Shown here piece after piece: positions 7,254 through 48,846 of a stretch of 64,000 nt of DNA (position 1 is its first letter; each line of letters starts with the position of its first letter). The position numbers and the translations under genes were made by a program. The notes beneath the pieces are model-generated. The model saw only the letters and a program-made list of their open reading frames with translations. It was not told where the DNA came from and searched no databases. The stretch is from Bacteroidota bacterium (lineage in GTDB: Bacteria; Bacteroidota; Ignavibacteria; UBA10030): contig DATDRF010000297.1 of assembly GCA_035291905.1 (NCBI GenBank), positions 14-64,013 on the forward strand, read 5' to 3'.

Positions 7254-8270
7254 GTGCACGCGTTTGGCCCCATGACATCTACTCCCCGAAAACTGCTCCA
7301 GATCGTAGCTCTTACCGTCTTCATTCTCTCCACCGGGATCATCGGATACCATCTCATTGAGGGGTGGCCATTGTTTGACGCACTTTATATGACTGTCATC
7401 ACATTGGCGACTGTGGGCTACGGTGAGATCCATGCTCTTTCGTATGCAGGACGAGTCTTTACAATATTTCTGATCTTCGGAGGAATGGGGATCCTCCTTT
7501 ATGGAGTGACAGAAATGACCGCGTTTGTCGTCGAGGGTGAGATGACGGGGTACTTAAGGAGAAGAAACATGAAACAACGAATCGGAAAACTTTCTAACCA
7601 CTATATACTGTGCGGGTGGGGCCTGAAAGGCGAACATGTGCTTGACGAACTAGAGAGGACGAAACGACAATGCGTCGTTGTCGAAATGAATCCAGAGAAA
7701 GTGATGCGACTGAATGAACGGGATGCCATGGTGGTCGAAGGCGACGCCACGCAAGATGATGTGCTGATGACCGCCGGCATCAAGAAGGCCGCAGGTCTCG
7801 TTGCCACCCTGCCATCCGATAAGGACAATCTGTTCGTTGTTATTACTGCCCGAGGGCTCAATCCGCGTCTGCGGATTGTATCCAAGCTGGACGAAATCGG
7901 AGCTCAGGAAAAGTTTCTCCGCAGCGGTGCCGACAGCACCGTATCGACAAATTTCATCGGCGGCCTTCGCATGGCCTCTGAGCTCGTGAGGCCCGATGCC
8001 GTGAATTTTCTGGACACGATGCTGAGGGACAACAGCTCCCTTCGGGTTGAAGACGTGCAGGTTGTGGGGAAATCAAAGTACCTCGGAAAGAGCATCAAAC
8101 AGTGCGATCCCCTCGTCGACTCGGGCGTTCTCCTTTTTTCGATAAGACGCAAGAGCGGCTATGTGTTTAATCCTCCCAATACGACCACGTTGGTTGAAGG
8201 CGACATACTCATTGTCATAGGATTGGCTGACAAGATTGCGGCACTTCGAACGAGCTTCGCGTTGAATTAG
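7254..8270 (+). CDS. Potassium channel protein with TrkA-N/TrkA-C (RCK) domains
   Basis: K+ selectivity filter TLATVGYGEI. Two TM helices plus a pore helix, followed by a Rossmann KTN (ILCGWGLKGEHV) and a TrkA-C domain. Confidence 0.8.
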   Translation: MHAFGPMTSTPRKLLQIVALTVFILSTGIIGYHLIEGWPLFDALYMTVITLATVGYGEIHALSYAGRVFTIFLIFGGMGILLYGVTEMTAFVVEGEMTGYLRRRNMKQRIGKLSNHYILCGWGLKGEHVLDELERTKRQCVVVEMNPEKVMRLNERDAMVVEGDATQDDVLMTAGIKKAAGLVATLPSDKDNLFVVITARGLNPRLRIVSKLDEIGAQEKFLRSGADSTVSTNFIGGLRMASELVRPDAVNFLDTMLRDNSSLRVEDVQVVGKSKYLGKSIKQCDPLVDSGVLLFSIRRKSGYVFNPPNTTTLVEGDILIVIGLADKIAALRTSFALN

Positions 8271-8272
8271 AA

Positions 8273-9007
8273 ATGACAATTCGCCACCTTGTGGTTTTCA
8301 AAGATTGCTTTCGTCACCTCTCCAGGGTGCCCGATCGCAGCGTTGACCTCCTCCTCACGGATCCTCCGTACGGACAGGACTATTCGACGGGGAGGCAGAA
8401 ACATACGGTTCGCAAAACCACCCGTATCATCAACGACACCGCCGCGCTGGATATTCCCGCGCTCATGCGCGAATTCGACCGGGTAACGAAAGACGAAAGT
8501 CACGTATATATCTTTACCAGCTGGAAGACCGTCGATCGATGGAAAAAGGAATTTGAGCGGTACTTCGTCCTTAAGAATATCCTCATCTGGTCAAAGGATA
8601 ATCACACGGCCGGAGACCTGTCATGGAGTTATGCACAGTCATATGAAATGATCCTGTTTGGGATGAAGGGAAGAAGAAGGCTGCACGGGGGAAGGGATCG
8701 GGACAGTGTCTACTACCCGAAAGTGAAATCACACCAGCAGATGCATCTGCTTCAAAAACCGGAACAGCTGATCGAATATCTTATCAGGAAGTCATCGAAT
8801 CCCGGGGATACAGTCCTGGATCCGTTTGGGGGATCGGGAACAGTGGGGATGTGCTGTGCGCGGTTGAAACGGAACAGTATTCAGTTCGAAATAGACGGAA
8901 GATTCAAGGCTTCCCTCCTTCAACGACTAAAGTCGGGAATTCCGGAGGGTTCAACGCAGGAAATACTTATCGAGGAGACAAAAAGAAAAGGGGCGACGCG
9001 TCTATGA
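8273..9007 (+). CDS. Solitary beta-class DNA methyltransferase (N6-adenine or N4-cytosine)
   Basis: Motif IV DPPYG lies near the N-terminus (LLLTDPPYGQDY). Motif I FGGSGT lies near the C-terminus (LDPFGGSGTVGM). This motif order is characteristic of beta-class amino-MTases. No restriction endonuclease candidate is adjacent. Confidence 0.8.
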   Translation: MTIRHLVVFKDCFRHLSRVPDRSVDLLLTDPPYGQDYSTGRQKHTVRKTTRIINDTAALDIPALMREFDRVTKDESHVYIFTSWKTVDRWKKEFERYFVLKNILIWSKDNHTAGDLSWSYAQSYEMILFGMKGRRRLHGGRDRDSVYYPKVKSHQQMHLLQKPEQLIEYLIRKSSNPGDTVLDPFGGSGTVGMCCARLKRNSIQFEIDGRFKASLLQRLKSGIPEGSTQEILIEETKRKGATRL

Positions 9008-9042
9008 CGGTCGCCCCCTCGGCGTAACCCCACAGCAGCGAC

Positions 9043-9417
9043 TCACATCTTTGCCATTGCTACGCTTCGGACCATGATTCCGTTCACGCCGCCCTTCGCC
9101 CGAACATAGCCTTTCGCTTCAACATTGTGACCGACGTGGTCAACGAGAAGATGATTGGGATTGTTCTTATGGTCGTCCGGGAGGAGTGAAACATACACTT
9201 TCCCGTCTGCCGTCAGAATCCCCAACGCTCCCCCCGCCTTGGCGCATGCCTTTGCACAAGCAACATGATCCTCTCCGCGGGCTCCGCTCGAGAGATAGCA
9301 CGCCACATCAATGACTTCCCCCGTAATAGTAGCCTCCTTCGACACAGGCTTTTCCTGACCGAATGTAACCGCCGCAAGCATGATTGAGACGGCCGCAAGG
9401 ATAAGGATATTCCTCAT
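9043..9417 (-). CDS. Small secreted hypothetical protein (signal peptide, 124 aa)
   Basis: N-terminal signal peptide MRNILILAAVSIMLAAVTFGQ. I recognise no family. Confidence 0.4.
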   Translation of the reverse strand: MRNILILAAVSIMLAAVTFGQEKPVSKEATITGEVIDVACYLSSGARGEDHVACAKACAKAGGALGILTADGKVYVSLLPDDHKNNPNHLLVDHVGHNVEAKGYVRAKGGVNGIMVRSVAMAKM

Positions 9418-9507
9418 AAGACCTCCAAGATATTGATCGTTGAAAAAAGAGCCGGCGTATGGAACGACTTTTTAACACGCATGACGCATAGTCAGTTCCC
9501 AAGGGGT

Positions 9508-10680
9508 CTACGACGTTGCGGGGGCCGCAAAGAAATGGGCAAAACGGTCGATTGCCGCACGAAATTCCGGACCAGGGGAAAGCAGGCTGAGGACAAGATG
9601 TGGCCCGCCTGTGACGTCGAACAGATAGCCCGGGTGGACAAGGATATTCTCCTTTTCAAGCAAAGCAAGGGACCACTCTTCGTCGGACCTGGTGGCAGGA
9701 ACCCGGATCATTGCGTTCCATCCCCCCTCGCTTCGAAGGAGCGAGCAGTCTCTCACGGAAACCGACCGGAGAAATGAGTAGTTCTCTCTGATCCTCTCGT
9801 GAAGAGGGGTTGAGAATAGGTGGATTTCGCCAAGAATTTCGGGGAGTACTATCTGGGAGGCCGTCGAGACCGAAAGAAATGTATCGGCGATTATCTCGAT
9901 TCTGCCGAGAGCTCCGTTAACCCACCCGGCCGGCCCACCCAGGCACATCCAGGCGAGTTTCAATTGCGGCAGGCCGGCAAGCTTGGAGAGCCCGTTGAGC
10001 ACTACCGTGGCACAATCGGTGCTTCCCGCAAATGTCGGAGGGATCTTCTCATGCGGGTCAAGAGGGAAAGAATGAAATACCTCGTCGATGATTAGCGGAA
10101 TGCCGCGACGGCCGGCAGTGGCAACGAGGAATTCCCGCTCGTCTTCCTTGACGAAGGAACCGGCCGGATTTGAGGGGTGAAGCAGGAGCACGGCGCGGGT
10201 CTGAGAATTCAAGGCCCTGGTGAATGAATCGCGGTCGATATACCATTCGCCGTCGTAGACAAGGTCATACACGGAAACCCTGATATCGTGAAGATCCGCG
10301 AGTGTGTCAAAAAGCGGATAGCTTGGGCGGGGAAGAAGAACCTGATCTCCGGGATTGCACAACAGGCGAAAAAGAAATGAATAGGCCTCGCTCGTGCTGC
10401 TTGTCAGCACAATCGATTCCGGATTTACCGAGGCTCTCTGTCCGGCGTAGTAGTCAGAAATTGCCCGCCTGGCAGCGGGGAGGCCTTTAGGAGTTGGATC
10501 ATATGAAAGGATCTGCGGGCGTGCGAACCGTTCAAGGAACTTGATCGACGGGGTTAGCCCACATCGGGTGGGATTTGATTCGGTGAGGTCAAGAATGGAC
10601 TCACCCTGCAATCGCTTCCGATTAAGGAGAGCCGTCAACCGATTTGCGTGAAGGTTCCACTCTGTGCGGGATGAAAACAT
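9508..10680 (-). CDS. PLP-dependent aminotransferase, class I/II
   Basis: Fold-type I aminotransferase features (FSSRTEWNL..., LSKLAGLPQLKLAW Lys region). The start is probably the internal Met at about 10680, which avoids a 50-nt overlap with typA. Confidence 0.75.
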   Translation of the reverse strand: MFSSRTEWNLHANRLTALLNRKRLQGESILDLTESNPTRCGLTPSIKFLERFARPQILSYDPTPKGLPAARRAISDYYAGQRASVNPESIVLTSSTSEAYSFLFRLLCNPGDQVLLPRPSYPLFDTLADLHDIRVSVYDLVYDGEWYIDRDSFTRALNSQTRAVLLLHPSNPAGSFVKEDEREFLVATAGRRGIPLIIDEVFHSFPLDPHEKIPPTFAGSTDCATVVLNGLSKLAGLPQLKLAWMCLGGPAGWVNGALGRIEIIADTFLSVSTASQIVLPEILGEIHLFSTPLHERIRENYSFLRSVSVRDCSLLRSEGGWNAMIRVPATRSDEEWSLALLEKENILVHPGYLFDVTGGPHLVLSLLSPGPEFRAAIDRFAHFFAAPATS

Positions 10681-14121: not shown

Positions 14122-17100
14122 GTGTTTTCTGCCATCATGATCTCATCCATTAAAGATCTTCTATACTCATCAGAGCCTTTCCGTAAGTTTGCAGAATCCG
14201 TCAAGGAAAGCCGAAATGCGCTTCGATTGGAAATTTCCGGCGTTAATGGGTCTTTGATGGCATTTGTTGCCGACCTTTTGGGTGAGCATTTTTCCAACGT
14301 CATCCTCGTAGTTTCGACAGATGATCGTGCGGAGCAGCTTCGGGATGATTGTGCGCTCGTTACACCGGGAAGAAAGGTGAACCTCTATGCCCACGCTGAA
14401 CACCACTCTGCCACTACCCTTGATATGAGCGGACCCGTTTCCGTGATGGAGTCTCTCCATTCGCTTGTGAGAAATGAAGCAGGCATCATGATTGCTTCGG
14501 CGGAAACGGCAGCGAGCCTGCTTCCGCCTCCCTCTGGTTTCCGCGAACGGGCCATCATACTGACATCGGAAGTTGAATACCCGTTTCAGGGTCTGGTGGA
14601 CAAGCTGGAAGAATGGAAGTTCGAGCGCAAGGACTTTGTTGAGGGGTACGGGGATTTTGCCGTCCGTGGAGGGATTCTGGATGTGTTTCCTTTTGTCGGA
14701 GAGCATCCGCTGCGGATTGAATTCTGGGGGGACAGGATCGAGTCAATACGCGAATTCGAGCCGCTTTCGCAGCGTTCCATCAGGGAGCTTCACTCTGCAA
14801 ATATCGTTGCGGGATTTCCCGATGTCGCTGATCGGGCAGACCGAACCTCGACCGTTTTTGACTACCTGCCGGCCGGCACAGTTCTCCTGGTTGAAGAGCC
14901 GGTTCTCTGCGAGCGGGAGGTTGAAGAGGTCATACTCGAGGGCGTCAAGGGCGTTGTTCGCTGGGGCGACATTCTCGAACGGAGCGCAAGGTTTCCCCGC
15001 ATAGTTCATTCAAGCCTTTCCGCTCCCGACGCGGACATTCAATTTGGCTCATCTCCCCAACCGGCATTTCACGGAAGCATCAAGCTCCTTGTTGAAGATC
15101 TCCGGCGCGAGAAGGTACGGTCGTTCAGGCAAATTATCGCCTGTGATTCCGCCGAAGAGCTCACGCGACTGCAGGACTTACTCGAAGAGGAGATCACCCG
15201 AACCGAAGAGAGTGACGGGGGGGATTGGGAGTTTCCGGAACTCAATCCCGAGGGGTTTCACGGCGGATTCGTGTTTCCTGCCGCTTCGATTGTTCTTTAT
15301 ACCGAGCACGAAACATTCGGGAGGCTTAAGAAACGCGGGACCCGAAGGCGGCCGCGGTTCCGCGGATTCAGCCAGCGGGAGGTGTATCGACTGAAGAAAG
15401 GTGATTTCGTGGTCCATGCTGATTACGGCGTGGGAAGGTTCGCTGGATTGCAGACGATCAAGGTCCGGGGGAATGATCAGGAAGTGATGAAGATACAGTA
15501 CGATGAGGATGACGTTCTCTATGTCAACCTCAATTTCGTCAACAGTGTTCAGAAATATTCGTCGCAGGAAGGTCATGAGCCGAAACTGACCAAGCTCGGC
15601 ACACCGCAGTGGGATCGCCTCAAAGCGCGCGCCCGCAAGCGCATTAAAGACATTGCACGCGGGCTGATTCGACTCTACGCCCAGAGAAAGCACGAGCCCG
15701 GGTTTGCGTTTTCCCCCGACAGCCATTGGCAGAAAGAGATGGAGGCTTCGTTCGTCTATGAGGATACTCCCGATCAGTCAACGGCGACAGAGGCGGTGAA
15801 GGCGAACATGCAGGAGGCCGTCCCCATGGACAGGCTTATCTGCGGTGATGTCGGTTTTGGCAAGACGGAGGTTGCGGTTCGGGCCGCGTTCAAAGCTGCT
15901 CTTGACGGCAAACAGACCGCCGTTCTGGTCCCCACAACGATCCTGGCGCAGCAGCACTATCAAACCTTTCTGGATCGCCTTGAACGCTATAGTGTTCGTG
16001 TTGCCTCGCTGACGCGGTTCAGAGGGAAGAAGGAACAAAAAGGCATACTCGGAGATCTTAAGGAAGGGTCTGTGGATATTGTGATCGGGACGCACCGGCT
16101 GCTGTCGAAAGACGTGGTGTTCAAGGACCTTGGGCTTCTGATTATCGATGAAGAACACCGCTTTGGCGTTACGGCAAAGGAAAAGCTTCGGCAGATGCGC
16201 GCATCGGTCGACACCCTGATGCTCACGGCAACACCGATCCCCCGGACGCTTCAGTTTTCGCTCATGGGAGCCCGGGATTTGTCGATCATCAATACGGCGC
16301 CGCGTAACCGGCTTCCGATCATCACGGAAATATGTGAATTCGATCTCGATCTTATCCGGGAGGCGATTCTCAAGGAGCTTCACAGGGGCGGGCAGGTGTA
16401 TGTGATTCATGACAGGATCCAGACAATGGATCTGGTGGTCCAACAATTGAAGACAAAGGTCCCCGAAGCGCGGTTCCATTCCGCTCACGGACAAATGAGG
16501 GGTCACGAGCTCGAAAAAACGATGATGGCGTTCCTTGAGCGCAAGTACGACGTTCTGATCTGCACAAAGATCATCGAGTCCGGCATTGACATCCCCCGTG
16601 TCAATACCATTATTATCAACCGTGCCGACCGGTTTGGCCTGGCTGAGTTGTATCAGCTGAGGGGAAGAGTAGGGCGGTCGAATGTGCAGGCGTACGCATA
16701 CCTGCTTACGCCGCCCATAGCCACCCTGCCGCGAGTTGCACTGCAGCGACTCCAGTCAGTTCAGGAGTTCACAGAGCTGGGTTCGGGGTTCAACCTTGCA
16801 TTGCGCGACATGGAAATACGTGGTGCCGGGAACCTGTTGGGGGCGGAACAGTCGGGATTCATCATGGAAATGGGATTTGAAATGTACCAGCGCGTGGTTG
16901 AAGAGGCGGTGCGGGAACTGAAAGACGAAGAATTCCAGGGGGTATTTGGCGAAGAAGGCAGACAGACGGCCACTCCTCAACCGGAGACCATTCTTGAATC
17001 GGATCTGGAAGCCCTTATCCCGGACATTTATGTCGAGTCGAGCCAGGAGCGACTTGATATCTACAGGCGACTCTACCAGGCAAAAACGTTGAACGACATT

Positions 17101-39799: not shown

Positions 39800-40448
39800 T
39801 GACCCCCCTCGCCATGCTCAGGAAGTGTGAATCGGTGCTGAGGTATTCCAGGAGACTTGCGAGAGCTTCGGGCATGAAAATGAGAACCTTGTCAACGATG
39901 AAGAAGACCAGGATGAGGAAGATGCCAAGGAGGAATGCTACGATCTGATTATCGGTGACGCTGGAGGCAAAAAGGCCGAGACTTACGAAAACTCCCGCCA
40001 TGAGTAAGAGCCCCAGGTATCCTCCGATGACAGGGCCGTTGTCGATGGTGCCGAGCGAAGAAATCGTCACATAGTAGACCAGCGAAGGAAGGAGGGCGAT
40101 CCCCATGAGACTCCAGGCGGCAAAGAATTTGCCCAGGATAATCTCCGCGTCATGGACCGGCTTGGTCGTGAGAAGTTCAATCGTTCCTGACTTTCGCTCC
40201 TCGGCCAGGAGCCGCATAGTAATTGCCGGGATGACAAAAAGGAAGATCCATCGGGCGGTTTCGAACATCTCGCGCATCGAAGCAGCATTGGCCAGAAAAA
40301 TGTTGCTTGCATAGAACCAACCCAGCAGCGCCAGGAACACAACAATGACCACGTAGGCAACCGCAGAATTGAAATACGAGCGCAATTCCTTGATGTAAAT
40401 GGGAACGATGTTCTTGAGCTGCACTGAACTGGGTAATTGGAATGCCAT
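39711..40448 (-). CDS. gldF: ABC-2 type transporter permease (GldF-like)
   Basis: Six TM helices in the ABC-2 family pattern. Confidence 0.7.
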   Translation of the reverse strand: MAFQLPSSVQLKNIVPIYIKELRSYFNSAVAYVVIVVFLALLGWFYASNIFLANAASMREMFETARWIFLFVIPAITMRLLAEERKSGTIELLTTKPVHDAEIILGKFFAAWSLMGIALLPSLVYYVTISSLGTIDNGPVIGGYLGLLLMAGVFVSLGLFASSVTDNQIVAFLLGIFLILVFFIVDKVLIFMPEALASLLEYLSTDSHFLSMARGVIDTRDLIYFASILGFTLYCSVVSLERRKW

Positions 40449-40463
40449 GAGGGAATCCCGCGG

Positions 40464-41420
40464 CTAATTGACAGTTTCTGATCGGGTCAGCTTGTGGAAG
40501 ATCTCCTCGAGGCTGGTGCTTTGCCGCGAGAGTTCTAGCAGCACCCAACGTTCCGAGATTGCCTGCCGGAACAGCTCCTCCCGGATATCCATCCCCTTTG
40601 CCGAATGAATGATGAACCTATGGATCGGTCCTTCGGACCCGCGGTAGTCGACGGCTTCCACATGCCGGAGGGATTTAAGTTTAGGAAAAAGATCCTGCAT
40701 GGGGTCCGGCGTTTCTGCTTTCAGTTCGACCGAGACGCTTTCCGACCCTCTGAAACTTTGTTTAAGCTCATCAGGTGTTCCGTCGGCGACAATGCTCCCT
40801 TCATTAATAATGACAACTCTGTCGCACGTTGCCTGGACCTCCGAAAGAATATGGGTGGAAAGAACAACGGTCTTCGCGCTGCCGAGACGGCGGATCAGGT
40901 TTCTGATTTCGATGATTTGGTTCGGATCGAGCCCGCTGGTTGGCTCGTCAAGGATGAGCACCTCAGGGTCATGGATCATCGATTGAGCGAGCCCGACCCT
41001 CTGCCGATAACCTTTGGAGAGCTCGCTAATGTCTTTGTGACGCACCTCCTCAAGGCCGCAAACCTCCACCATCTCGTTCTGTCGCTGTCTGAGATGCTTA
41101 TCCCGCAGCCCGTGGAGCCGGGCAGAGTACTCAAGATACTCGAGCACGTTCATGTCAAGATACAACGGATTCAACTCGGGGAGATAGCCGATCTTCCTTC
41201 GGACCTCAACAGAGTAGTCGAGCGTGCTCAGGCCGTCAACTTCAACCGAACCGGAGGATTGCGGCATATAGCATGTGATGATCTTCATCGTCGTGGTCTT
41301 CCCCGCTCCGTTCGGTCCCAGGAAGCCCAGTATCTCACCGGTCTTGACGTCGAACGAAATGTCGTTGACGGCTTTTTCGTCACCGTAAAGTTTTGTCAGA
41401 TTTCGAACGGCAATGGACAT
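40464..41420 (-). CDS. gldA: ABC transporter ATP-binding protein (GldA-like)
   Basis: Walker A GPNGAGKTT. Signature LSKGYRQRVGL. Walker B ILDEPTSGLD. Confidence 0.85.
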   Translation of the reverse strand: MSIAVRNLTKLYGDEKAVNDISFDVKTGEILGFLGPNGAGKTTTMKIITCYMPQSSGSVEVDGLSTLDYSVEVRRKIGYLPELNPLYLDMNVLEYLEYSARLHGLRDKHLRQRQNEMVEVCGLEEVRHKDISELSKGYRQRVGLAQSMIHDPEVLILDEPTSGLDPNQIIEIRNLIRRLGSAKTVVLSTHILSEVQATCDRVVIINEGSIVADGTPDELKQSFRGSESVSVELKAETPDPMQDLFPKLKSLRHVEAVDYRGSEGPIHRFIIHSAKGMDIREELFRQAISERWVLLELSRQSTSLEEIFHKLTRSETVN

Positions 41421-41653
41421 GCTAATCCGTATTCAAATTGTCGCGACTGAGTGATAATCGGTCTTTTTGTGTCAGGATGCTGCGAAAGGTGGAACAATTT
41501 TAAGAAAAAGAAGAAACTTTGTCAAGAACTTCATCCTACTCCGTGTTCTCTGTGTCCCTCTGCGTTAAAGTCTTTAACCACAAAGGTCACAAAGAGGGCA
41601 CAAAGACTATAGAGAACATATACAGACGCAGACAAGCAGCGGAGTGTTCCTGT

Positions 41654-42732
41654 TCAACGCAAAGAAAGCGAGAATTGCGATTCCTGGGGACGAAGGAAGG
41701 ATTCGGTGGAAAGGCGAACAGGGGTTTCGTTCAAGCGATACTTTCGGCAACCTGCCTGAAAGAGATTCTCGATTGTATCGGCGATCGGGCCTTCGCCCTT
41801 CATTCGCTTTCCGAAGTCCGATTCGGAAAGCTTTCCCCCTCGGACGGACCGAATATGACTCACGACTTTGTTGAACTTCTCGGGGTATTCGCGCTTGAGC
41901 CACTCGAGGAAGAGATCCTTGAGTGCATAGGAAAGCCGCACCGTTGTTTGCCCCGCATGACGTGCGCCGCTTTCTGATGCCTGCCTGAGAATTTCTGGGA
42001 TCTCGCTTTCTGTCAGTCCGGGTATTATCGGTGCCACATTGACACCGACGGGAATCCCGTTCGCGGCAAGAATTTCCACTGTTTCCATGCGCTTTCGGGG
42101 AGCCGAAGCGCGCGGTTCCAGTTTTCTTGCCAGATCCTGGCGGAGCGTTGTGACGGTGATAATGACGAAGAGAAGATTGGTGGCGGCAAGTTCTTTGAGA
42201 ATATCGACGTCGCGCTGAACAAGGGCGTTCTTGGTAATGAGCGAGACCGGGTTTCGGAAGCGCAAGAATATTTCGAGGCAGCGGCGGGTGATCTTCAATG
42301 TCCGTTCCGCAGGCTGGTAGCAATCAGTATTGCCTGAAAAAACCACCGTCTGGGGTTGCCATGAAGGCTTGCTGAATTCAGCCGCAAGGAGCTCGGGTGC
42401 TTTGAGCTTCACCATGATCTTTGTCTCAAAATCGAGGCCGGAGGAGAAGCCAAGGTATTCATGTGAAGGGCGCGCGTAGCAAAGATGCAGCCGTGCTCAC
42501 AGCCTCGGTAGGGGTTGATGCTGTACGTGAAACCGATGTCGGGGCTGTCGTTTTTGGAGAGAATGGAAAGAGAGCGGTCGACATAGAAGCGCGTGGGGAC
42601 TTTTTGCCCGGGCTCGGGCAGCTCAAAGTACTCCGCCAGATCAGGAGGCGGCGATTCCACTTTGAGTGATTCAAAGCGGTTGGGAGGATTGAATCCCGCC
42701 CCGCGACCGATGAATGGGCGAGATTCACTCAT
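41654..42732 (-). pseudogene. Radical SAM 'DNA repair photolyase' (SplB-like, COG1533 family) gene disrupted by a 1-nt frameshift
   Basis: The N-terminal ORF 42409..42732 reaches ...YRGCEHGCIF and then goes out of frame. Re-inserting one T in the T-run near 42480 restores [39 protein letters not shown]..., which continues into ORF 41654..42415. The start overlaps the polB-like stop by 8 nt. Confidence 0.75.
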
Positions 42733-45031
42733 GGGGCGACGGTGCGGAAGCGAACGGTTTGGCCTGGACGCGTTGGGATCTGGTTGATTTGCGGGGTTTC
42801 AATGGAGGGGGAAGAAAGAGCTCCTTGAGGCGATCGACCGTATATCCGAATGGCGAGAGCAGCGACTCGATCGCTTTCAGTGTCAGTTCGGTGTAAAAGT
42901 CGATATCGTAGCCATCCTCAAAGGCATACAAGGCAATCGGCTTTGCCTTTTCCGGTTTTTTCTTTCCCGATTGGTCGATGAGAATGTACTCGATGGTTTC
43001 TCCGGCCGCGAGATGGACCCCCATTTCTTCAATAAGTCCCGCAACGACAGCGCTGACGCTTTTGTTGGTATATTCATTCGCCTCTTTTGTAATGTGCCGC
43101 CGCATGACAAGCTCCATCGGATTCACTTTTCCGCTTCTGAGCATTGCAACGGCGTTGCGGCCGATGTCGAGGAGCTCGGGGACCAACGTCTCTACATCGG
43201 CCGCCGTGCGCGCAGGTGCCATGCGGTCGAACATTGCCCTCTGCATGGTCTTGATGAACGGGGGAGTGTCCCGGCGGCGTGTTTCGAGTCCGCGCACTTT
43301 AAAATCGCCGTTGCGGTACCACCCTGCATACCGGTTGGCCGTCGTGATGAGGGGATCCTGCTTTGACGCCGGGAAAAGGATCCAGTTGTAAATTCCTTCC
43401 AATGAAATATCGATTCCCGTGCGTGCCGCGATCTCGCGGCATAACTCTTCATATTCCTGCTCGGAAGTGCCGGGCTTTTTCAGCCAGACGCAATCGATGA
43501 TGGCGTGAAGCATTCGGAAGCCGTGCTGCTCAGCAATCTCCTTTGCCGTTAAAATGGAGTCGCGCGAAAATGCGTTCACGGACTCGTGTGCTTCGATTCT
43601 TCCGAAACGTGCGTTCTTGTATCCGAGATATCCGAAACAGCTGACGAGCATCCATTTGAGCGCATTCTGGCGCCGGTCGTATTTACGGAACAGAGCGTCA
43701 TCCCTCCCCTTATAAAATCGTTTGAGTCTTTTATAATGAGACCGTTTTTGCACCACCGATCGAAGTGTTGCCGGGACTATTCCCTCGCGCCGTTCACAAA
43801 TGGTATACCCGAGCTCGGGGACGGCCGAGTTTGAACAGCAACGGCAATTGACCGTTTCCGGGGAAACGTTCTTTTCGACCATGATGGTGGGATACATCGA
43901 AACGAAATCGAGCTCGGCGACTTCTTCGTGGTACCCAAGAGGAGGATTGAAAATAAGACCGCCCCTGTCTGCCATCAACAATGTGGAGGCCGATTTGAAG
44001 TCTTCCGGTTCCCGTTTTTTGGACGGAATAAGGTACCGGTGGCTGTGCGCCCAAGAGAGCTGCAGGGACGACATCGATGTGCCGATGCTGACGCGGGCCT
44101 GGCGCTGAACGGGAATCTGTGTCAAACGGGCGAGCTCGAAGACTCCGTCAAGGTCGGCCTCGCCGAACGTGAAGGAGTTCTGCTCATCGAGGTGCCAGCG
44201 GCCGGCGAGCTCAAAAGCCCCGTCTTTATGGACGATTTTGCCGTACTGGAAAAAACTCGATTCCCTGGTTCGGAAATACGGTGTCTGCTCATCGCGGTTC
44301 AGGAGGAGGGGAATATTGTGACGTGCAGACAGAGCCGTCAGGTGCGGCAAAATGATCGAATCGCCGTATTCCGTCAGAACAATATCGGGGTCGCAGCGAT
44401 GAAGATGCCAGTTGAGCGTCTCCAGCACGTCACGCGGGTTCTCTTGCTCCAGCGAATATGTCTGGCCATCGTAGCTGACCTCAAGCTGTAGGTGCTTGCG
44501 ATATTTGGGAGGGACAAAGTTGTTCCCGTTTCTCAGTCGTAGCGTTGAAAGCGGCGGAACCTCGTATTCCATTGCTTCATGATGATCGTTGATGGCCCAT
44601 CCGACGAGACGGCTGCGATGATCGATTTCGTAGTCACCGTAAGCAAGAGGAAAAAGAGCCGTTTCATACAGAAACAACTGAGGGACAAGGAGATCCGAAT
44701 CAAAAAAAGCAAAGTGAGGGAAAAATTGTTCAAAGGATCGGACGACAGATGAAAAGCGGGTCGGGTTATGAACGGAAATTTGTAGAACGTCCCATGATTC
44801 ATCGGAGTACAATTCCTTGCGCGTGGTGATTGAAACAGTAAGCCGTGTGTCGCAGCGGGTGGCGAGTGTGGAGGCGCGCTTCATATCCTGCGGACTCAGG
44901 TGAAGAAAAAACGAAGGAAGAAAGGGAACGGTGCAGCGATGCTTTCTTCCTTCGCGGTCGATAAGCCACACGACCATGCCGTCTGTCGAAGGATAAGCGT
45001 CAAAGAGCCACCCCGAAACGACATTGCTCAT
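42725..45031 (-). CDS. Family B DNA polymerase paralog (E. coli Pol II-like) with degenerate 3'-5' exonuclease motifs and a degenerate polymerase motif C
   Basis: Motif A LDFVSMYPTIM aligns with Pol II LDYKSLYPSII. Motif B KWMLVSCFGYLG aligns with KIIMNAFYGVLG. NRYAGW and RGLETRRRDT align with KKRYAGL and KGLETVRTDW. N-terminal similarity to Pol II: GWLFDAYP...FLHLSP against GFILTRHW...AFIP. The exonuclease and motif C substitutions are detailed in the findings. Confidence 0.85.
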   Translation of the reverse strand: MSNVVSGWLFDAYPSTDGMVVWLIDREGRKHRCTVPFLPSFFLHLSPQDMKRASTLATRCDTRLTVSITTRKELYSDESWDVLQISVHNPTRFSSVVRSFEQFFPHFAFFDSDLLVPQLFLYETALFPLAYGDYEIDHRSRLVGWAINDHHEAMEYEVPPLSTLRLRNGNNFVPPKYRKHLQLEVSYDGQTYSLEQENPRDVLETLNWHLHRCDPDIVLTEYGDSIILPHLTALSARHNIPLLLNRDEQTPYFRTRESSFFQYGKIVHKDGAFELAGRWHLDEQNSFTFGEADLDGVFELARLTQIPVQRQARVSIGTSMSSLQLSWAHSHRYLIPSKKREPEDFKSASTLLMADRGGLIFNPPLGYHEEVAELDFVSMYPTIMVEKNVSPETVNCRCCSNSAVPELGYTICERREGIVPATLRSVVQKRSHYKRLKRFYKGRDDALFRKYDRRQNALKWMLVSCFGYLGYKNARFGRIEAHESVNAFSRDSILTAKEIAEQHGFRMLHAIIDCVWLKKPGTSEQEYEELCREIAARTGIDISLEGIYNWILFPASKQDPLITTANRYAGWYRNGDFKVRGLETRRRDTPPFIKTMQRAMFDRMAPARTAADVETLVPELLDIGRNAVAMLRSGKVNPMELVMRRHITKEANEYTNKSVSAVVAGLIEEMGVHLAAGETIEYILIDQSGKKKPEKAKPIALYAFEDGYDIDFYTELTLKAIESLLSPFGYTVDRLKELFLPPPLKPRKSTRSQRVQAKPFASAPSPHE

Positions 45032-45306
45032 GTGCGCTCCTCGGGAGCAGCAAGCGCGCCGGCCTGAACAAGCCGCCGGCGCAGTTCTTTGATGGTCTTT
45101 CCCTGCTCAATGATGATCGACATGATAATGCTCTCAAAGGGAATGGCGCGCATGGCGTAAAAGTTTGTGGCGAGATGACGCTTGGCGGCGCGGAAGACCT
45201 CATCGAAGATCTCCTGGTCCTCCAATTGCAGGCCGCGGCGGAATTTCGACCAGCCGGCGATCTCACTGTCGATGATGTTGGTGAACGTCGGTACGGTGCG
45301 TCCCAT
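45028..45306 (-). CDS. Small hypothetical protein (about 92 aa) between the imuA-like and polB-like genes
   Basis: ATG at 45306 preceded by AGGAG-N9. Its stop overlaps the polB-like start (ATGA). The longer upstream extension (TTG at 45468) would overlap the imuA-like gene by 206 nt and is disfavoured. Confidence 0.4.
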   Translation of the reverse strand: MGRTVPTFTNIIDSEIAGWSKFRRGLQLEDQEIFDEVFRAAKRHLATNFYAMRAIPFESIIMSIIIEQGKTIKELRRRLVQAGALAAPEERT

Positions 45307-45991
45307 GATTGTTTTCTCCTTTCGGTGATAGAAGAGATGAAGGTTGAGGCTCAAGTTGAACGGCATAGTGATGGTGTTCATCCTCTTCGAGGCGATAGAC
45401 ACGATCCACGGATGATGTGAGTGTCTGAGAGAGGCCGTTACGCTCTTCGGGCCAGACGGTCCGGTCAACGGATGCGATGAGAACGGAAATGCCGCGCTGC
45501 TTCATTTCTTGGAGGGCAATGAGAACGCGGCCGAGAATCTGGCGGACCTCACGCAGCGGCGCCTGCTCGTCGTACAGTGTTTCGAGCGGATTAAAGATCA
45601 TAGCGGTGGTGGCGCCTTTGGCGGCAAGAAAAGCGGGGAGGCGCCGTGTGAGCGCCTGCTCCATCTGGTAGCAGGTGAATCCGCGGGAGATGAAGATGCG
45701 GTTGAGCAGTTGTGCGGGGTCGATCCGATGTTCCCGGGCAAAGCGGGAGATCAGGTGGACGTTGAAACAGTTCCCGCCGTCAACGACGGCGATGGAGGAG
45801 CCGTTGGCCAGAGCAACGGAGGCCATGGTGAGGGAAAGTGTGAAGACGGCGCTGTCACCGTGCAGCAGGTACACCTTTCCGGGCGGGTGGGTGAAGGCAT
45901 GAATGAGGTTCTCAGAAGAGCGGATTATTGCCGTGTCTGTGTCTGCGGCAGGGGATAGTAACTGACGGGCTTGAACTGGAAATGGGGGCAC
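45263..45991 (-). CDS. ImuA/SulA-like protein (RecA-fold with degenerate P-loop)
   Basis: RecA-like topology without a canonical Walker A: GKVYLLHGDSAVFTLSLTMASVALANGSSIAVVDGGNCFNVHLISRFAREHRIDPAQLL..., then TAMIFNPLETLY. The ORF-track TTG start at 46018 falls inside the predicted -10 hexamer, so the in-frame GTG at 45991 is proposed as the start. Confidence 0.55.
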   Translation of the reverse strand: MPPFPVQARQLLSPAADTDTAIIRSSENLIHAFTHPPGKVYLLHGDSAVFTLSLTMASVALANGSSIAVVDGGNCFNVHLISRFAREHRIDPAQLLNRIFISRGFTCYQMEQALTRRLPAFLAAKGATTAMIFNPLETLYDEQAPLREVRQILGRVLIALQEMKQRGISVLIASVDRTVWPEERNGLSQTLTSSVDRVYRLEEDEHHHYAVQLEPQPSSLLSPKGENNHGTHRTDVHQHHRQ

Positions 45992-46014
45992 GGTTCCGGC
46001 TTTCTCTTGCCGGA

Positions 46015-46044
46015 ACAATATGACATTTTTGTCGTATTGTCAAG
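46015..46044 (-). promoter_or_regulatory. Sigma70-like promoter (TTGACA-N17-TATTGT on the minus strand) overlapped by a 26-bp near-perfect palindromic operator candidate
   Basis: Plus strand 46015..46040 reads ACAATATGACA-tttt-TGTCGTATTGT, with arms matching 10 of 11. On the minus strand the -35 TTGACA is at 46043..46038 and the -10 TATTGT at 46020..46015, separated by a 17-nt spacer. Confidence 0.4.
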
Positions 46045-46107
46045 AAATGAAAACGACAATTATGTCGCTTCACTCACAGTGAAGAAGTCCCTTCTAGGCC
46101 AAAAACC

Positions 46108-46180
46108 TAAAGTCCGACATCTGCTGTGTTGGTTGGGAGCTTTAGTTCCCCGCCAACCGCGGTTGATGTCGGACTTTTAA
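46108..46180 (-). terminator. Bidirectional rho-independent terminator (13-bp perfect stem AAAGTCCGACATC / GATGTCGGACTTT)
   Basis: Long hairpin followed by T-runs on both strands, downstream of the cyclase gene that ends at 46214. Confidence 0.55.
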
Positions 46181-46213
46181 CATGAGCCCGAAGTCGGACT
46201 GCTTCCTGCTTGC

Positions 46214-46999
46214 CTACAATATTGCCACAATCCGCAGCGGCCCGCCGCTGCCGCCTTTGATCTTCATTGGCAAAGCGATGACCGTGAACCCTTTCTCGGG
46301 TAACCGCTCCAGGTTGGCCACATTCTCAAATGCCGGAACACTCCGTTCGAAAAGAGCGACGTGTGTCTCGAAGCGCGACGATTGGCCATAGTCAATACTC
46401 GGAGTATCCAATCCTACCGCCTTGACCTTCCGTTCATCAGCCAGCCATTTTGCCGTTTCCGGATGAAGCCCCGGGAAGTGAAGTTTTGCAACACCGTCGG
46501 CTCCTCGTTGATCTGTCCCCATGTACTGTACCCGATCCGGCCAATATTTTCCGAATCCGGTTCTCAACAGAACGATTGCCCCCTCGGGAATTCTGCCGTT
46601 GGATCTTTCCCATTCCTCACAATCCGATTTCTGAATCAGGTAATCGCTGTTCTCCGAACAATGTTGGGAGACATCGATAACGATCCCCGTGCCTACGAGC
46701 CTTTCCAGAGGAATCTGATCGACCGTCCAGCCTCCCTCGTAGAAGTGAATCGGCGCATCGATGTGCGTACCGCCGTGCTCGGGAGTCCAGAATCTGTTCG
46801 CCGTATAGAAATATCCTCCCGGAGTTATTCCTTCCGTCCCCTTTTCGAACGCGAATCCTTTCTCCGTCGGCCAATAAATAGTGGTGGAATCGTACGCATA
46901 GGAAAGATCAACAATATTTTCCGCTGTGAATGAGAAGGGTTCGCGGCGTTCACATCCCGCCATCAGCACAAACATCATTGCAAGAATCATTGTCTTCAT
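46214..46999 (-). CDS. Cyclase family protein (kynurenine formamidase-like metal hydrolase), secreted
   Basis: HxGTHxDxPxH motif (PEHGGTHIDAPIHF). Signal peptide or lipobox (LMAGC). Confidence 0.75.
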   Translation of the reverse strand: MKTMILAMMFVLMAGCERREPFSFTAENIVDLSYAYDSTTIYWPTEKGFAFEKGTEGITPGGYFYTANRFWTPEHGGTHIDAPIHFYEGGWTVDQIPLERLVGTGIVIDVSQHCSENSDYLIQKSDCEEWERSNGRIPEGAIVLLRTGFGKYWPDRVQYMGTDQRGADGVAKLHFPGLHPETAKWLADERKVKAVGLDTPSIDYGQSSRFETHVALFERSVPAFENVANLERLPEKGFTVIALPMKIKGGSGGPLRIVAIL

Positions 47000-47010
47000 G
47001 ATATCTCCTC

Positions 47011-48846
47011 CTACCTCATGACTGAGACTTTGATATGTGAGGGATACTGTCGGGAGCGATAGACTCTCTGTGTTGCTTTCTGGAAATCCGATTCCTTCGC
47101 TTTGAAGATATTCTCAACGTATTTTTGCGGATTCCGGTCAATGATGGGAAACCACGTACTCTGAACCTGCACCATGATCTTGTGTCCCTTCAAAAAGCGA
47201 TAATCCTGTTGATGCAGATCGATGGTGAATTCCGTCGCCTGATCAGGGACAAGCGGCTCGGGATGCTCATAGCTCTTTCGATATCGTGCGCGAAAGACCT
47301 CATTGGCAACCATGAACTGATATCCACCCATGGAATGTTTCTTCGGGTAAGATTCGGGATACACATCGATCAACTTGACGATCCAATCGCAATCTGTTCC
47401 GGACGTTGAAGCAAAGAGCTTTGCGACGATATCTCCTGTGATGACGACATCCTCGTTCAGCGCCTCTGTTTCCCAGCTAAGGACATCCGGCCGAAGATGG
47501 ACGAAACGCTGGTCCTGGGTGAGCCAGGTATACCACCGCGAGCCGCGGCCGTAGGTCGGCTCAATGGGCCTTGGCCTGTAGGGGACAGGGTGCGCCGGAT
47601 CCGACACATACTCGTCGTACACCTCCTCGCTACGCTCCGGAGGCGGATCAAACGAAAGCCGTCCATCCCCATGGAAATAGAGGTTCATTTGGGTGAAATG
47701 GGTGCGCGGCGGCCACATGTCGTACGACATCCAACGGTTCATGCCTGTCTGGAATGTGTGTGCTTCCGGCATTGTAAAAGAGCCTTTATCCTTAAGGAAA
47801 TAGGCAAACCAAGGGGCCTGAATGTTTGCACGGAAGTACAGACTCGGAGCGGTGCTGTCGAATTCGACGTTTCCCAGATTGTCTCCTCTTCTTCCAGACC
47901 ACCCACCATGATTCCATGGACCGACGACAAGAAAATTCTTGTTCTCCGCGTCGTGTTTCTCAAGTTCTGCATAGATTTTCAGCGGGCCGTAGAAATCCTC
48001 CTGATCCCACCACCCCGCAACATTGAGAGTGGGAACCGTGACCCTGTTGAGGTGCGGAACTGCCGTCTGGTCCTTCCAGAACTGATCATAGTCGGGGTGA
48101 TTGACGTAATCGTTCCAGGTTGGAATCTTGTCGTGGAAGTATTTTGCGTTGACGTTGGACAAAGCACCCAGATTCAAATACCATTCGTATGTGTCGTACT
48201 TGTCAAAAACGAAAGCCGTATCTCCCCTGGATGCTTCGAGGGAAAACGCATACTCGAAGCCGTAGCTCAGCCGAAACGCCCCGTTGTGGTGAAAATCGTC
48301 GCCGATCCACATATCGACCGGTGAAGCCTGAGGAGAAACCGCCTTCAGCGCGGGATGCGGATCAAGCATCGACATGACGGTCAACCATCCGTCGTAGGAA
48401 ATACCCAGCTGGCCTACTCGTCCGTTGTTTCGAGGGACGTTCTTCAAGAGCCATTCAATGCTGTCATAGGTGTCGGTGCTCTCGTCAATTCCTTTGGGGT
48501 TCTTTCTTGGGTTTCTTTGCATGACAAACGTCCCCTCCGATTTGTATCGGCCCCGTATGTCCTGGAATACAAAGATGTATCTCTCTTCTGCCAACTCACG
48601 GAGGTAACCATCGAGCCGCCTTGCAGAATTGGTGACGTTATAGGGGGTGCGCAGGAGTATGAAGGGGAGCCGATCTGTTACGTCCTTTGGGGAGTAGATT
48701 TCGGTAAAGAGTCGGAACCCGTCTCTCGCTGTGATCCAGGCCTCGGTCCGGACGTACGAGTCGGAAGGATTGACCTGAGCTTGCGCGGGAAGGATGGGTG
48801 AAAAGAGAACCAGGAAAGCAGGAACAAAGACTGATCGTTTATTCAT
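47011..48846 (-). CDS. CocE/NonD family hydrolase (S15 X-Pro dipeptidyl-peptidase-like), secreted
   Basis: Signal peptide. An alpha/beta-hydrolase N-domain whose nucleophile region GISYDGWLT carries Asp where the S15 GxSYxG serine is expected; whether the nucleophile is intact is left open. A C-terminal beta-sandwich is typical of CocE/NonD. Confidence 0.8.
   Translation of the reverse strand: MNKRSVFVPAFLVLFSPILPAQAQVNPSDSYVRTEAWITARDGFRLFTEIYSPKDVTDRLPFILLRTPYNVTNSARRLDGYLRELAEERYIFVFQDIRGRYKSEGTFVMQRNPRKNPKGIDESTDTYDSIEWLLKNVPRNNGRVGQLGISYDGWLTVMSMLDPHPALKAVSPQASPVDMWIGDDFHHNGAFRLSYGFEYAFSLEASRGDTAFVFDKYDTYEWYLNLGALSNVNAKYFHDKIPTWNDYVNHPDYDQFWKDQTAVPHLNRVTVPTLNVAGWWDQEDFYGPLKIYAELEKHDAENKNFLVVGPWNHGGWSGRRGDNLGNVEFDSTAPSLYFRANIQAPWFAYFLKDKGSFTMPEAHTFQTGMNRWMSYDMWPPRTHFTQMNLYFHGDGRLSFDPPPERSEEVYDEYVSDPAHPVPYRPRPIEPTYGRGSRWYTWLTQDQRFVHLRPDVLSWETEALNEDVVITGDIVAKLFASTSGTDCDWIVKLIDVYPESYPKKHSMGGYQFMVANEVFRARYRKSYEHPEPLVPDQATEFTIDLHQQDYRFLKGHKIMVQVQSTWFPIIDRNPQKYVENIFKAKESDFQKATQRVYRSRQYPSHIKVSVMR

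Follow-up and report, generated by a model that had tools for sequence, protein, structure and literature searches.

A probable bacterial copy of the archaeal-derived PolB2 mutasome operon in an Ignavibacteria-like bacterium (Bacteroidota), with an appended radical-SAM pseudogene and a candidate tandem operator

The stretch of DNA analysed here, referred to below as the window, comprises 64,000 nucleotides (nt) of contig DATDRF010000297.1 from a Bacteroidota bacterium (assembly GCA_035291905.1), and contains a minus-strand cassette that is very probably a bacterial copy of the known, archaeal-derived PolB2 mutasome operon, carried by an Ignavibacteria-like member of the Bacteroidota. The operon consists of iRadA, PPB2 and PolB2 and is a described system (Makarova 2014; Kazlauskas 2020; Timinskas et al. 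2025, PMC11791011; Timinskas 2026, PMC12926913), present in the literature since 2008-2014 and treated in detail in 2025 by Timinskas, Timinskas and Venclovas (PMC11791011), with PolB2 constituting the bacterial B-family group G2 of the 2026 survey (PMC12926913). The three-gene core is already known, and the modest new parts at this locus are a radical-SAM gene appended to it and a candidate operator motif. An earlier note on this DNA had identified the kind of system correctly and was right about the state of the motifs, while three of its four family assignments are corrected below; its statement that the architecture is not a characterised system is superseded by the published accounts of the operon (PMC11791011, PMC12926913). 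The cassette contains the following features, with open reading frames (ORFs) given in their order of transcription and protein lengths in amino acids (aa):

41654-46018, minus strand: four co-oriented reading units of the ORF list
45263-45991, minus strand: iRadA, 242 aa from GTG 45991, inactivated RadA/Rad51 homologue
45028-45306, minus strand: PPB2 (partner of PolB2; arCOG07300; DUF8156), 92 aa
42725-45031, minus strand: PolB2, 768 aa, exonuclease-dead archaeal-type B-family DNA polymerase
41654-42732, minus strand: PA0069-family radical-SAM pseudogene (COG1533, "SplB-like"), two ORF fragments

Consecutive ORFs overlap by 44 nt (45263-45306), 4 nt (ATGA, 45028-45031) and 8 nt (42725-42732). 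Of the four overlapping minus-strand genes behind a single promoter/operator that had been described earlier, the co-orientation, the overlaps and the promoter were all recovered, but the fourth gene is split by a 1-nt deletion.

The polymerase of the cassette is of the archaeal type. It matches Pfam DNA_pol_B (3.5e-34) and its top NCBIfam models are archaeal-type (PRK05761, 405 bits), whereas the Pol II models of NCBIfam give 66, 41 and 35 bits (~1e-18) against cut-offs of 570-1435. A PDB search with the single sequence returned Pyrococcus/Thermococcus PolB (P. abyssi/KOD) at about 5e-45, with E. coli Pol II absent from the top 60 matches, and a search with a profile of 48 homologues returned archaeal PolB at 1e-102, Pol alpha at about 3.5e-45 and E. 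coli Pol II at 5e-27, so that the earlier description of this protein as a Pol II paralog has to be given up. The supplement of PMC11791011 includes MBI3110573.1, an Ignavibacteriales protein with the motif HAIIDCVWL that is classified there as PolB2 (operon group 1a). The polymerase of the window shares 72% identity with it over 394 aa and is therefore a direct member of the published family, more than a protein that resembles it. The same supplement lists Ignavibacteriales and Bacteroidota PolB2 entries with the motif HAIIDCVWL, as found in the window.

In an alignment to P. abyssi PolB, the acidic residues of Exo I (D/E) are replaced by W/I and the Asp of Exo II by Ile, and the Exo III stretch is gone, with 26 residues remaining versus 71 in the archaeal enzyme. 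Motif A reads ELDFVSMYP (D375), motif B reads KWMLVSCFGYLGY and motif C reads HAIID (D513), in which the first Asp of the usual DTD is replaced to give IID. The degenerate exonuclease motifs and motif C reported in the earlier note are thus borne out, and with the first Asp of motif C and the exonuclease residues lost on alignment, the protein is not a housekeeping Pol II that retains all of its catalytic Asp residues. Among 48 diverse PolB2 homologues, D375 and D513 do not vary and K459 is kept in at least 90%, which argues that the active site is maintained. The S. islandicus PolB2 likewise has IID as its motif C (residues 401-403) and a dead exonuclease (PMC11791011). As summarised in the same paper, the Sulfolobus enzyme (Dpo2) is damage-induced and catalytically active, acts as an extender in translesion synthesis (TLS), and is required for targeted mutagenesis.

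Further features of PolB2 and its relatives were observed. Four Cys residues are kept in the bacterial PolB2 clade (NCRCC…C; C396, C398, C399 and C412; window 43795-43848). Two of them align with a Cys pair of P. abyssi PolB, which we take to be the disulfide of Thermococcales PolB, and the other two are extra; the cluster may be a metal-binding site. The PolB2 homologues P0127, P0158, P0164, P0169, P0179, P0186, P0193 and P0224 are about 1240-1310 aa long, and the break of the query match at residue 466, within motif B (CFGY), suggests an intein insertion in these long proteins. In Chloroflexota relatives, a clamp motif (QLRLF, QPRLF) is located at the C-terminus of iRadA and not on PolB2.

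The first gene of the cassette encodes a RecA-superfamily protein related to RadA. The 251-aa ORF that begins at TTG 46018 would start within the -10 hexamer of the promoter, and GTG 45991, which gives a protein of 242 aa and was chosen by the gene caller on identical contigs too, is therefore the likelier start. A profile of 25 homologues from related loci matched P. furiosus RadA (2e-10), Dmc1 (1e-7), Rad51 (1e-4) and RadB (1e-4) in the PDB, with no bacterial RecA among the matches. The PDB match begins past the P-loop region, and the Walker A motif GxxxxGK[TS] is absent from all 25 aligned sequences; the conserved motifs are VDGxN, SRxFTxxQ and LDTxYDE. Pfam and NCBIfam gave no ImuA, SulA or RecA match, and NCBIfam gave faint matches to RadA/Dmc1. 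The RecA-superfamily core lacking a functional P-loop (no GKT/S), which had been noted earlier for the 251-aa protein, is thus confirmed, and its assignment as ImuA/SulA-like is replaced by one to the RadA, Dmc1 and Rad51 group, consistent with the published description of iRadA as a RadA homologue without ATPase residues (PMC11791011). On the N-terminal side, where RadA has a helical (HhH) domain, about 35 non-conserved residues, which match nothing in Pfam, precede the core.

The 92-aa protein, previously left without a family, is PPB2/DUF8156 (MGRT, PF26485). It begins MGRTVPTF, its Shine-Dalgarno sequence (AAAGGAG) lies within the end of iRadA, and a protein identical to it carries the precomputed Pfam label PF26485 (DUF8156). 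Among 27 homologues, M1, G2 and R3 never vary and T4 is kept in at least 90%, and essentially all of the 75 PPB2 homologues found beside PolB2 have the MGRT N-terminus. PPB2 (arCOG07300) has been described as a small helical protein, with a conserved N-terminal MGRT arm that inserts between PolB2 and iRadA (PMC11791011). In the 44-nt overlap (window 45263-45306), the iRadA frame continues across the PPB2 N-terminus, which is read in the other frame. Since iRadA tails like …HGTHRTDVHQHHRQ recur in several close relatives, the overlap is common to them; true iRadA-PPB2 fusions occur in other bacteria (PMC11791011).

The PolB2 family comprises 819 representative clusters (50% identity) at E < 1e-30. 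A scan of one genome per species of the GTDB found it in at least 598 species, and the best 80 loci, from about ten phyla, were fetched and annotated with hidden Markov models iterated from the window proteins. The order iRadA-PPB2-PolB2 is kept in 61 of the 64 loci having enough upstream DNA, in Ignavibacteriota/Bacteroidota, Kryptoniota, Nitrospirota, Thermodesulfobacteriota, Chloroflexota, Acidobacteriota, Armatimonadota and Sumerlaeota, and exceptions are rare (L013, also L024 and L085). PMC11791011 likewise reports this single order for bacterial operons, together with their acquisition from archaea. An S24 repressor gene is present within 8 kb in 28 of the 80 loci, and the recurrent neighbours are DUF72 (14 loci), SRAP (8) and Y-family polymerases (3), reproducing the published neighbourhood (PMC11791011, Table S1), which is enriched in lexA, SRAP and DUF72. 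A megablast comparison of the cassette with plasmids gave no match, and the synteny of the flanking cyclase and ABC-transporter genes is kept in L007, L009 and L012, which together argue against a mobile-element origin. No Rfam family was matched over positions 40000-48000 of the window.

The fourth gene was correctly placed by the earlier note in the COG1533 repair-type radical-SAM family, but it is a pseudogene in the window, not the intact ORF then assumed. One nucleotide has been lost between 42483 and 42482, which splits the gene into two fragments (42409-42732, 107 aa; 41654-42415, 253 aa). The deletion falls within the CxxxCxxC motif, changing GCEHGCIYCYA into GCEHGCIF followed by a frameshift and leaving the third Cys out of frame; the 8-nt overlap with the stop of PolB2 is at the start of this gene. 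Both fragments are recognized by NCBIfam NF033668 (at 73 and 320 bits), and the intact allele of L004 scores 466 bits against its cut-off of 360, with no spore-photoproduct-lyase model matching this intact allele. A PolB2 identical to that of the window was found on 21 metagenome contigs, six of which were fetched (L001-L006). L004 and L005 carry an intact radical-SAM gene of 359 aa (…GCIYCYA…), and L001, L002, L003 and L006 have the same deletion as the window (one A gone, TCTATTG to TCTTTG), with a second 1-nt deletion (G) near 42702 of the gene in L001 and L002. The three mutasome genes are intact on the contigs with the frameshift. The recurrence of the deletion on these four contigs and in the window points to population-level decay, not a one-off error, and the decay of the gene beside an intact core indicates that the radical-SAM protein is dispensable for the function of the three core genes. 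The gene is therefore a dispensable co-regulated passenger, not an obligate subunit. A homopolymer sequencing error as the source of the frameshift was considered and ruled out by the sequence context and the recurrence across independent assemblies.

Among related loci, a radical-SAM gene is found within 1 kb downstream of PolB2 in 4 of 62 (L007, L008, L011 and L012; PolB2 identity 68-74%), so that of the neighbourhood proposed earlier as a unit it is the triad that is widely conserved. No separate operator (up to 2 mismatches) precedes the radical-SAM gene in these four loci. This narrow linkage fits an entry in supplementary Table S1 of PMC11791011, where Radical_SAM is present in 65 of 1823 neighbourhoods and is undiscussed. 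COG1533/PA0069 genes are known to be LexA-regulated in Pseudomonas, Verrucomicrobia, Bacteroidetes and other groups.

The upstream region of the cassette contains a single strong promoter flanked and overlapped by two copies of a palindromic site, and six related loci contain a repressor gene beside the PolB2 operon:

46015-46043, minus strand: sigma-70-like promoter, TTGACA-17 nt-TATTGT, 10/12 consensus matches
46054-46067, no strand assigned: operator O1, perfect palindrome CGACATAATTGTCG, 11 nt upstream of the -35 box
46021-46034, no strand assigned: operator O2, reading CGACAAAAATGTCA on the minus strand, one mismatch to the palindrome, in the -35/-10 spacer
L008, 4425-5072: CI-like S24 repressor beside a PolB2 operon
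L010, 947-1594: CI-like S24 repressor beside a PolB2 operon
L011, 4034-4657: CI-like S24 repressor beside a PolB2 operon
L015, 6090-6737: CI-like S24 repressor beside a PolB2 operon
L017, 5954-6601: CI-like S24 repressor beside a PolB2 operon
L018, 6109-6756: CI-like S24 repressor beside a PolB2 operon

O1 and O2 are 33 bp apart, and the promoter is identical in L001-L006 despite differing DNA just upstream. Tandem CGACA-N4-TGTCG pairs that are 30-34 bp apart and have A/T-rich spacers occur 17 times in 1.12 Mb, versus about 0.9 in composition-preserving shuffles. They are found as one pair per locus, in the window itself and at 16 loci of related species (within L007-L029), all in the clade of the window, and are kept in species with PolB2 identity down to about 50%. 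The pair is located upstream of iRadA in the window and in L007, L008, L009, L012, L017, L022 and L027-L029, directly before a lone PolB2 (7914-10196) in L013, which has no iRadA or PPB2 within 8 kb, before dinB-DUF72-iRadA operons in L020 and L023, and before DUF72 in L026. It is also present upstream of the S24 repressor gene in L010 and L011 and in the divergent region of this gene in L015, L017 and L018, with no tandem sites within 250 nt of the L008 repressor gene. The repressors in these relatives have an HTH_3/Phage_CI_repr plus Peptidase_S24 architecture and are not canonical LexA; an HTH_3 plus S24 architecture is that of the "non-canonical LexA" that runs the SOS response in Bacteroidetes (Sanchez-Osuna 2021, PMC8565304). 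Loci with a canonical LexA (L014, L019) lack the CGACA-N4-TGTCG motif. A tblastn search with E. coli LexA found no lexA in the 64-kb window and, as the repressor gene lies outside it, we infer the operator-binding protein of the host from the six related loci.

No published report of the CGACA-N4-TGTCG motif was found, nor any paper tying a LexA-binding motif to Ignavibacteria; the motifs published for Bacteroidetes, GGA-N5-TCC and CTAA-N5-TTAG, are different, and the account that gives them leaves Ignavibacteria unmentioned (PMC8565304). The tandem CGACA-N4-TGTCG is thus put forward, from its distribution and placement, as a candidate new operator motif for a non-canonical LexA in Ignavibacteria-like Bacteroidota. 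The remaining operator-like sites of the window were dismissed as chance occurrences: all are single, and most have G/C in the 4-nt spacer, versus A/T at the promoter; the one inspected, at 17022, falls within the mfd coding sequence.

Two side observations concern the regulatory regions. In L020 (5007-10202) and L023 (5655-10205), the operator pair is followed by a Y-family polymerase gene (IMS)-DUF72-iRadA-PPB2-PolB2, an arrangement that would place two different TLS polymerases, IMS and PolB2, in one SOS transcript. In the window, a stretch of about 146 nt (46070-46215) between the upstream cyclase-family gene and O1 forms an imperfect palindromic element; it has an RNA fold of -64.1 kcal/mol (z = -5.7) and contains the nested inverted repeats AAAGTCCGACATC/GATGTCGGACTTT. 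In L001-L006 the element is inverted and only about 80% identical by eye, and the cassettes of these contigs differ from that of the window at about 20 single bases in some 4.4 kb. The element could be a REP-like (repetitive extragenic palindromic) or MITE-like (miniature inverted-repeat transposable element) repeat, or an invertible segment, and it might act as a bidirectional terminator that insulates the operon.

The analysis shows which genes are present, the state of their motifs, the conservation of gene order and operator, and the pseudogene; the formation of a complex, TLS activity, induction by damage and the repressor used by this organism are inferred. These features suggest a working model of the operon. 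Expression of iRadA, PPB2 and PolB2, coupled in translation, would start from one promoter, and a CI-like SOS repressor (HTH_3 plus Peptidase_S24), presumably encoded elsewhere in the genome, would occupy both operators around it. Upon DNA damage, self-cleavage of the repressor would free the promoter and allow synthesis of the coupled transcript. Going by the published AlphaFold models and by Sulfolobus genetics and biochemistry, one PolB2, one iRadA and three PPB2 would then assemble, and the proofreading-free PolB2 would extend from lesions or mismatches, performing TLS in a role analogous to that of Pol V or ImuA-ImuB-DnaE2. The PA0069-family gene was appended at the 3' end of the operon in a narrow lineage and is frameshifted in the Fe-S motif in the strain represented by the window. 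A more specific proposal is tentative: the operon of this lineage may have recruited a coupled PA0069-type enzyme, and may be controlled by a CI-like non-canonical LexA through the unreported tandem sites, which are about three helical turns apart. If so, radical-based lesion processing would work together with PolB2 translesion synthesis, and the repeated radical-SAM frameshifts would record a recent loss of function in part of the population.

Several other readings of the locus were weighed. The one offered in the earlier note, an unrecognised SOS cassette resembling imuA-imuB-dnaE2, with a degenerate Pol II paralog instead of DnaE2 beside an ImuA/SulA-like RecA-fold partner, shares the general logic of a P-loop-less RecA-fold protein and an error-prone polymerase behind a repressor-controlled promoter, and PMC11791011 itself stresses the parallels in architecture between the PolB2 and Pol V mutasomes. 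The functional analogy with a damage-inducible translesion or mutagenesis cassette therefore stands, but the families differ: the RecA-fold protein leads by profile to RadA, Dmc1 and Rad51 only, the polymerase prefers archaeal PolB over Pol II by the margin of E values given above and is 72% identical to a published PolB2, and the iRadA-PPB2-PolB2 operon is already in the literature, which makes this reading highly improbable. It is somewhat less remote, though still improbable, that PolB2 has no catalytic activity and acts purely as a scaffold or DNA-binding factor, as in the original hypothesis of an "inactivated archaeal B-family polymerase". The replaced first Asp of motif C and the loss of all exonuclease residues are what such a protein would be expected to display, but the near-invariance of D375, D513 and K459 argues for a maintained active site, and the S. 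islandicus PolB2, which also has IID, is, by the summary in PMC11791011, an active TLS extender needed for targeted mutagenesis. Of the earlier suggestion that the polymerase is a non-proofreading or non-catalytic partner, the first half agrees with the motifs, and the second corresponds to the older view, at odds with the activity reported for the IID-bearing Dpo2.

For the bacterial PolB2 mutasome operon favoured here, two of its newer parts have alternatives of their own. The tandem CGACA-N4-TGTCG might serve another regulator or have no role, with the operon not damage-inducible in this organism; the window contains no S24 repressor gene, and the motif is unreported in the literature found and unlike the GGA-N5-TCC and CTAA-N5-TTAG of Bacteroidetes. 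This is nevertheless unlikely, because the pair overlaps the promoter, is conserved as one per locus far into the clade, also precedes the CI-like S24 repressor gene (a pattern of autoregulation), dinB and DUF72, and is missing from L014 and L019, which have a canonical LexA. An assembly or sequencing artefact in a radical-SAM gene that is intact and functional in the organism is about as improbable as a dead polymerase: single-base indels can arise in assembly, and L004 and L005 do carry the intact gene, but the identical deletion is shared by the window and four contigs assembled independently from different samples, it lies outside any long homopolymer, and two of these four contigs have a second, different 1-nt deletion in this gene while their mutasome genes are intact.

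Some points weigh against the assignment to the PolB2 mutasome, or against parts of it. The local Pfam scan gave no match for iRadA or PPB2, so that their identity comes from related-locus profiles, the precomputed Pfam label and the literature, and for PPB2 the family assignment draws on this label, the MGRT motif and synteny. The PolB2 tail (42725-42790) reads …SQRVQAKPFASAP and ends in QAKPF, a degenerate clamp-binding-like sequence where relatives have QIPLF (QIPLFAS), QLTMF or ELPLF; the clamp-binding motif thus appears degenerate in the lineage of the window, and clamp use by this PolB2 is uncertain. No repressor gene is present in the 64-kb window, in which the CI-like repressor of L010 has no match. 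The activity and complex formation attributed to bacterial PolB2 are extrapolations based on one archaeon and on structure models.

Bacterial PolB2 mutasomes are archaeal in origin and so far in silico predictions. The window provides a clean example, with a defined promoter and dual operator, a candidate motif for a CI-like LexA analogue in Bacteroidota, and a radical-SAM gene that occurs in functional and nonfunctional alleles. Such natural PA0069-type alleles bear on whether a long-uncharacterised SOS family cooperates with translesion synthesis. The value of the locus is a specialist one, as it adds no new system and its core finding is already explained.

Compared with known systems, the cassette is closest to the PolB2 operon (archaeal prototype S. 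islandicus Dpo2; bacterial G2), with which it shares the three families, their order, the IID motif and the dead exonuclease, as well as the MGRT arm of PPB2, an iRadA without Walker A, an SOS-type neighbourhood and 72%-identical homologues in the published dataset. It differs in the addition of a PA0069-family radical-SAM gene, translationally coupled at the 3' end, and in an operator motif and CI-like repressor type that the published work on this operon does not describe. The ImuA-ImuB-DnaE2 system is similar in being a LexA-type controlled cassette with a RecA-fold protein without ATPase motifs and an error-prone, non-proofreading polymerase; by contrast, the window has a RadA-derived iRadA and a B-family polymerase, with no Y-family or C-family polymerase in the cassette. 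The E. coli Pol V mutasome (UmuD'2C-RecA) likewise puts together, as pointed out in PMC11791011, a polymerase with a subunit of recombinase fold and a small oligomeric accessory under SOS control, but it is built from a Y-family polymerase, an active RecA drawn from the filament and an S24-derived UmuD', none of which families is present in the cassette. E. coli Pol II (PolB, group G1) has the B-family fold and is SOS-inducible; it differs in its active DEDDy exonuclease, its DTD motif C and its action as a single subunit, and the window PolB2 scores far under the Pol II cut-offs.

The radical-SAM gene resembles the PA0069/COG1533 SOS proteins (P. aeruginosa PA0069; splB of Verrucomicrobia and Bacteroidetes), in that its intact allele passes NF033668 and the family is repeatedly LexA-regulated, but in other genomes such a gene mostly stands alone as an SOS gene, whereas here it is part of a PolB2 operon and a pseudogene in the window. 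Given that no model of this enzyme matched, it is not a true spore photoproduct lyase. The candidate regulation resembles that by the non-canonical LexA of Bacteroidetes (PMC8565304) in the repressor architecture of the relatives and in a fixed-spacer dyad before repressor and TLS genes, and differs in the dyad itself: CGACA-N4-TGTCG is a 5-4-5 dyad, which resembles the CGAAC-N4-GTTCG box of Gram-positive bacteria.

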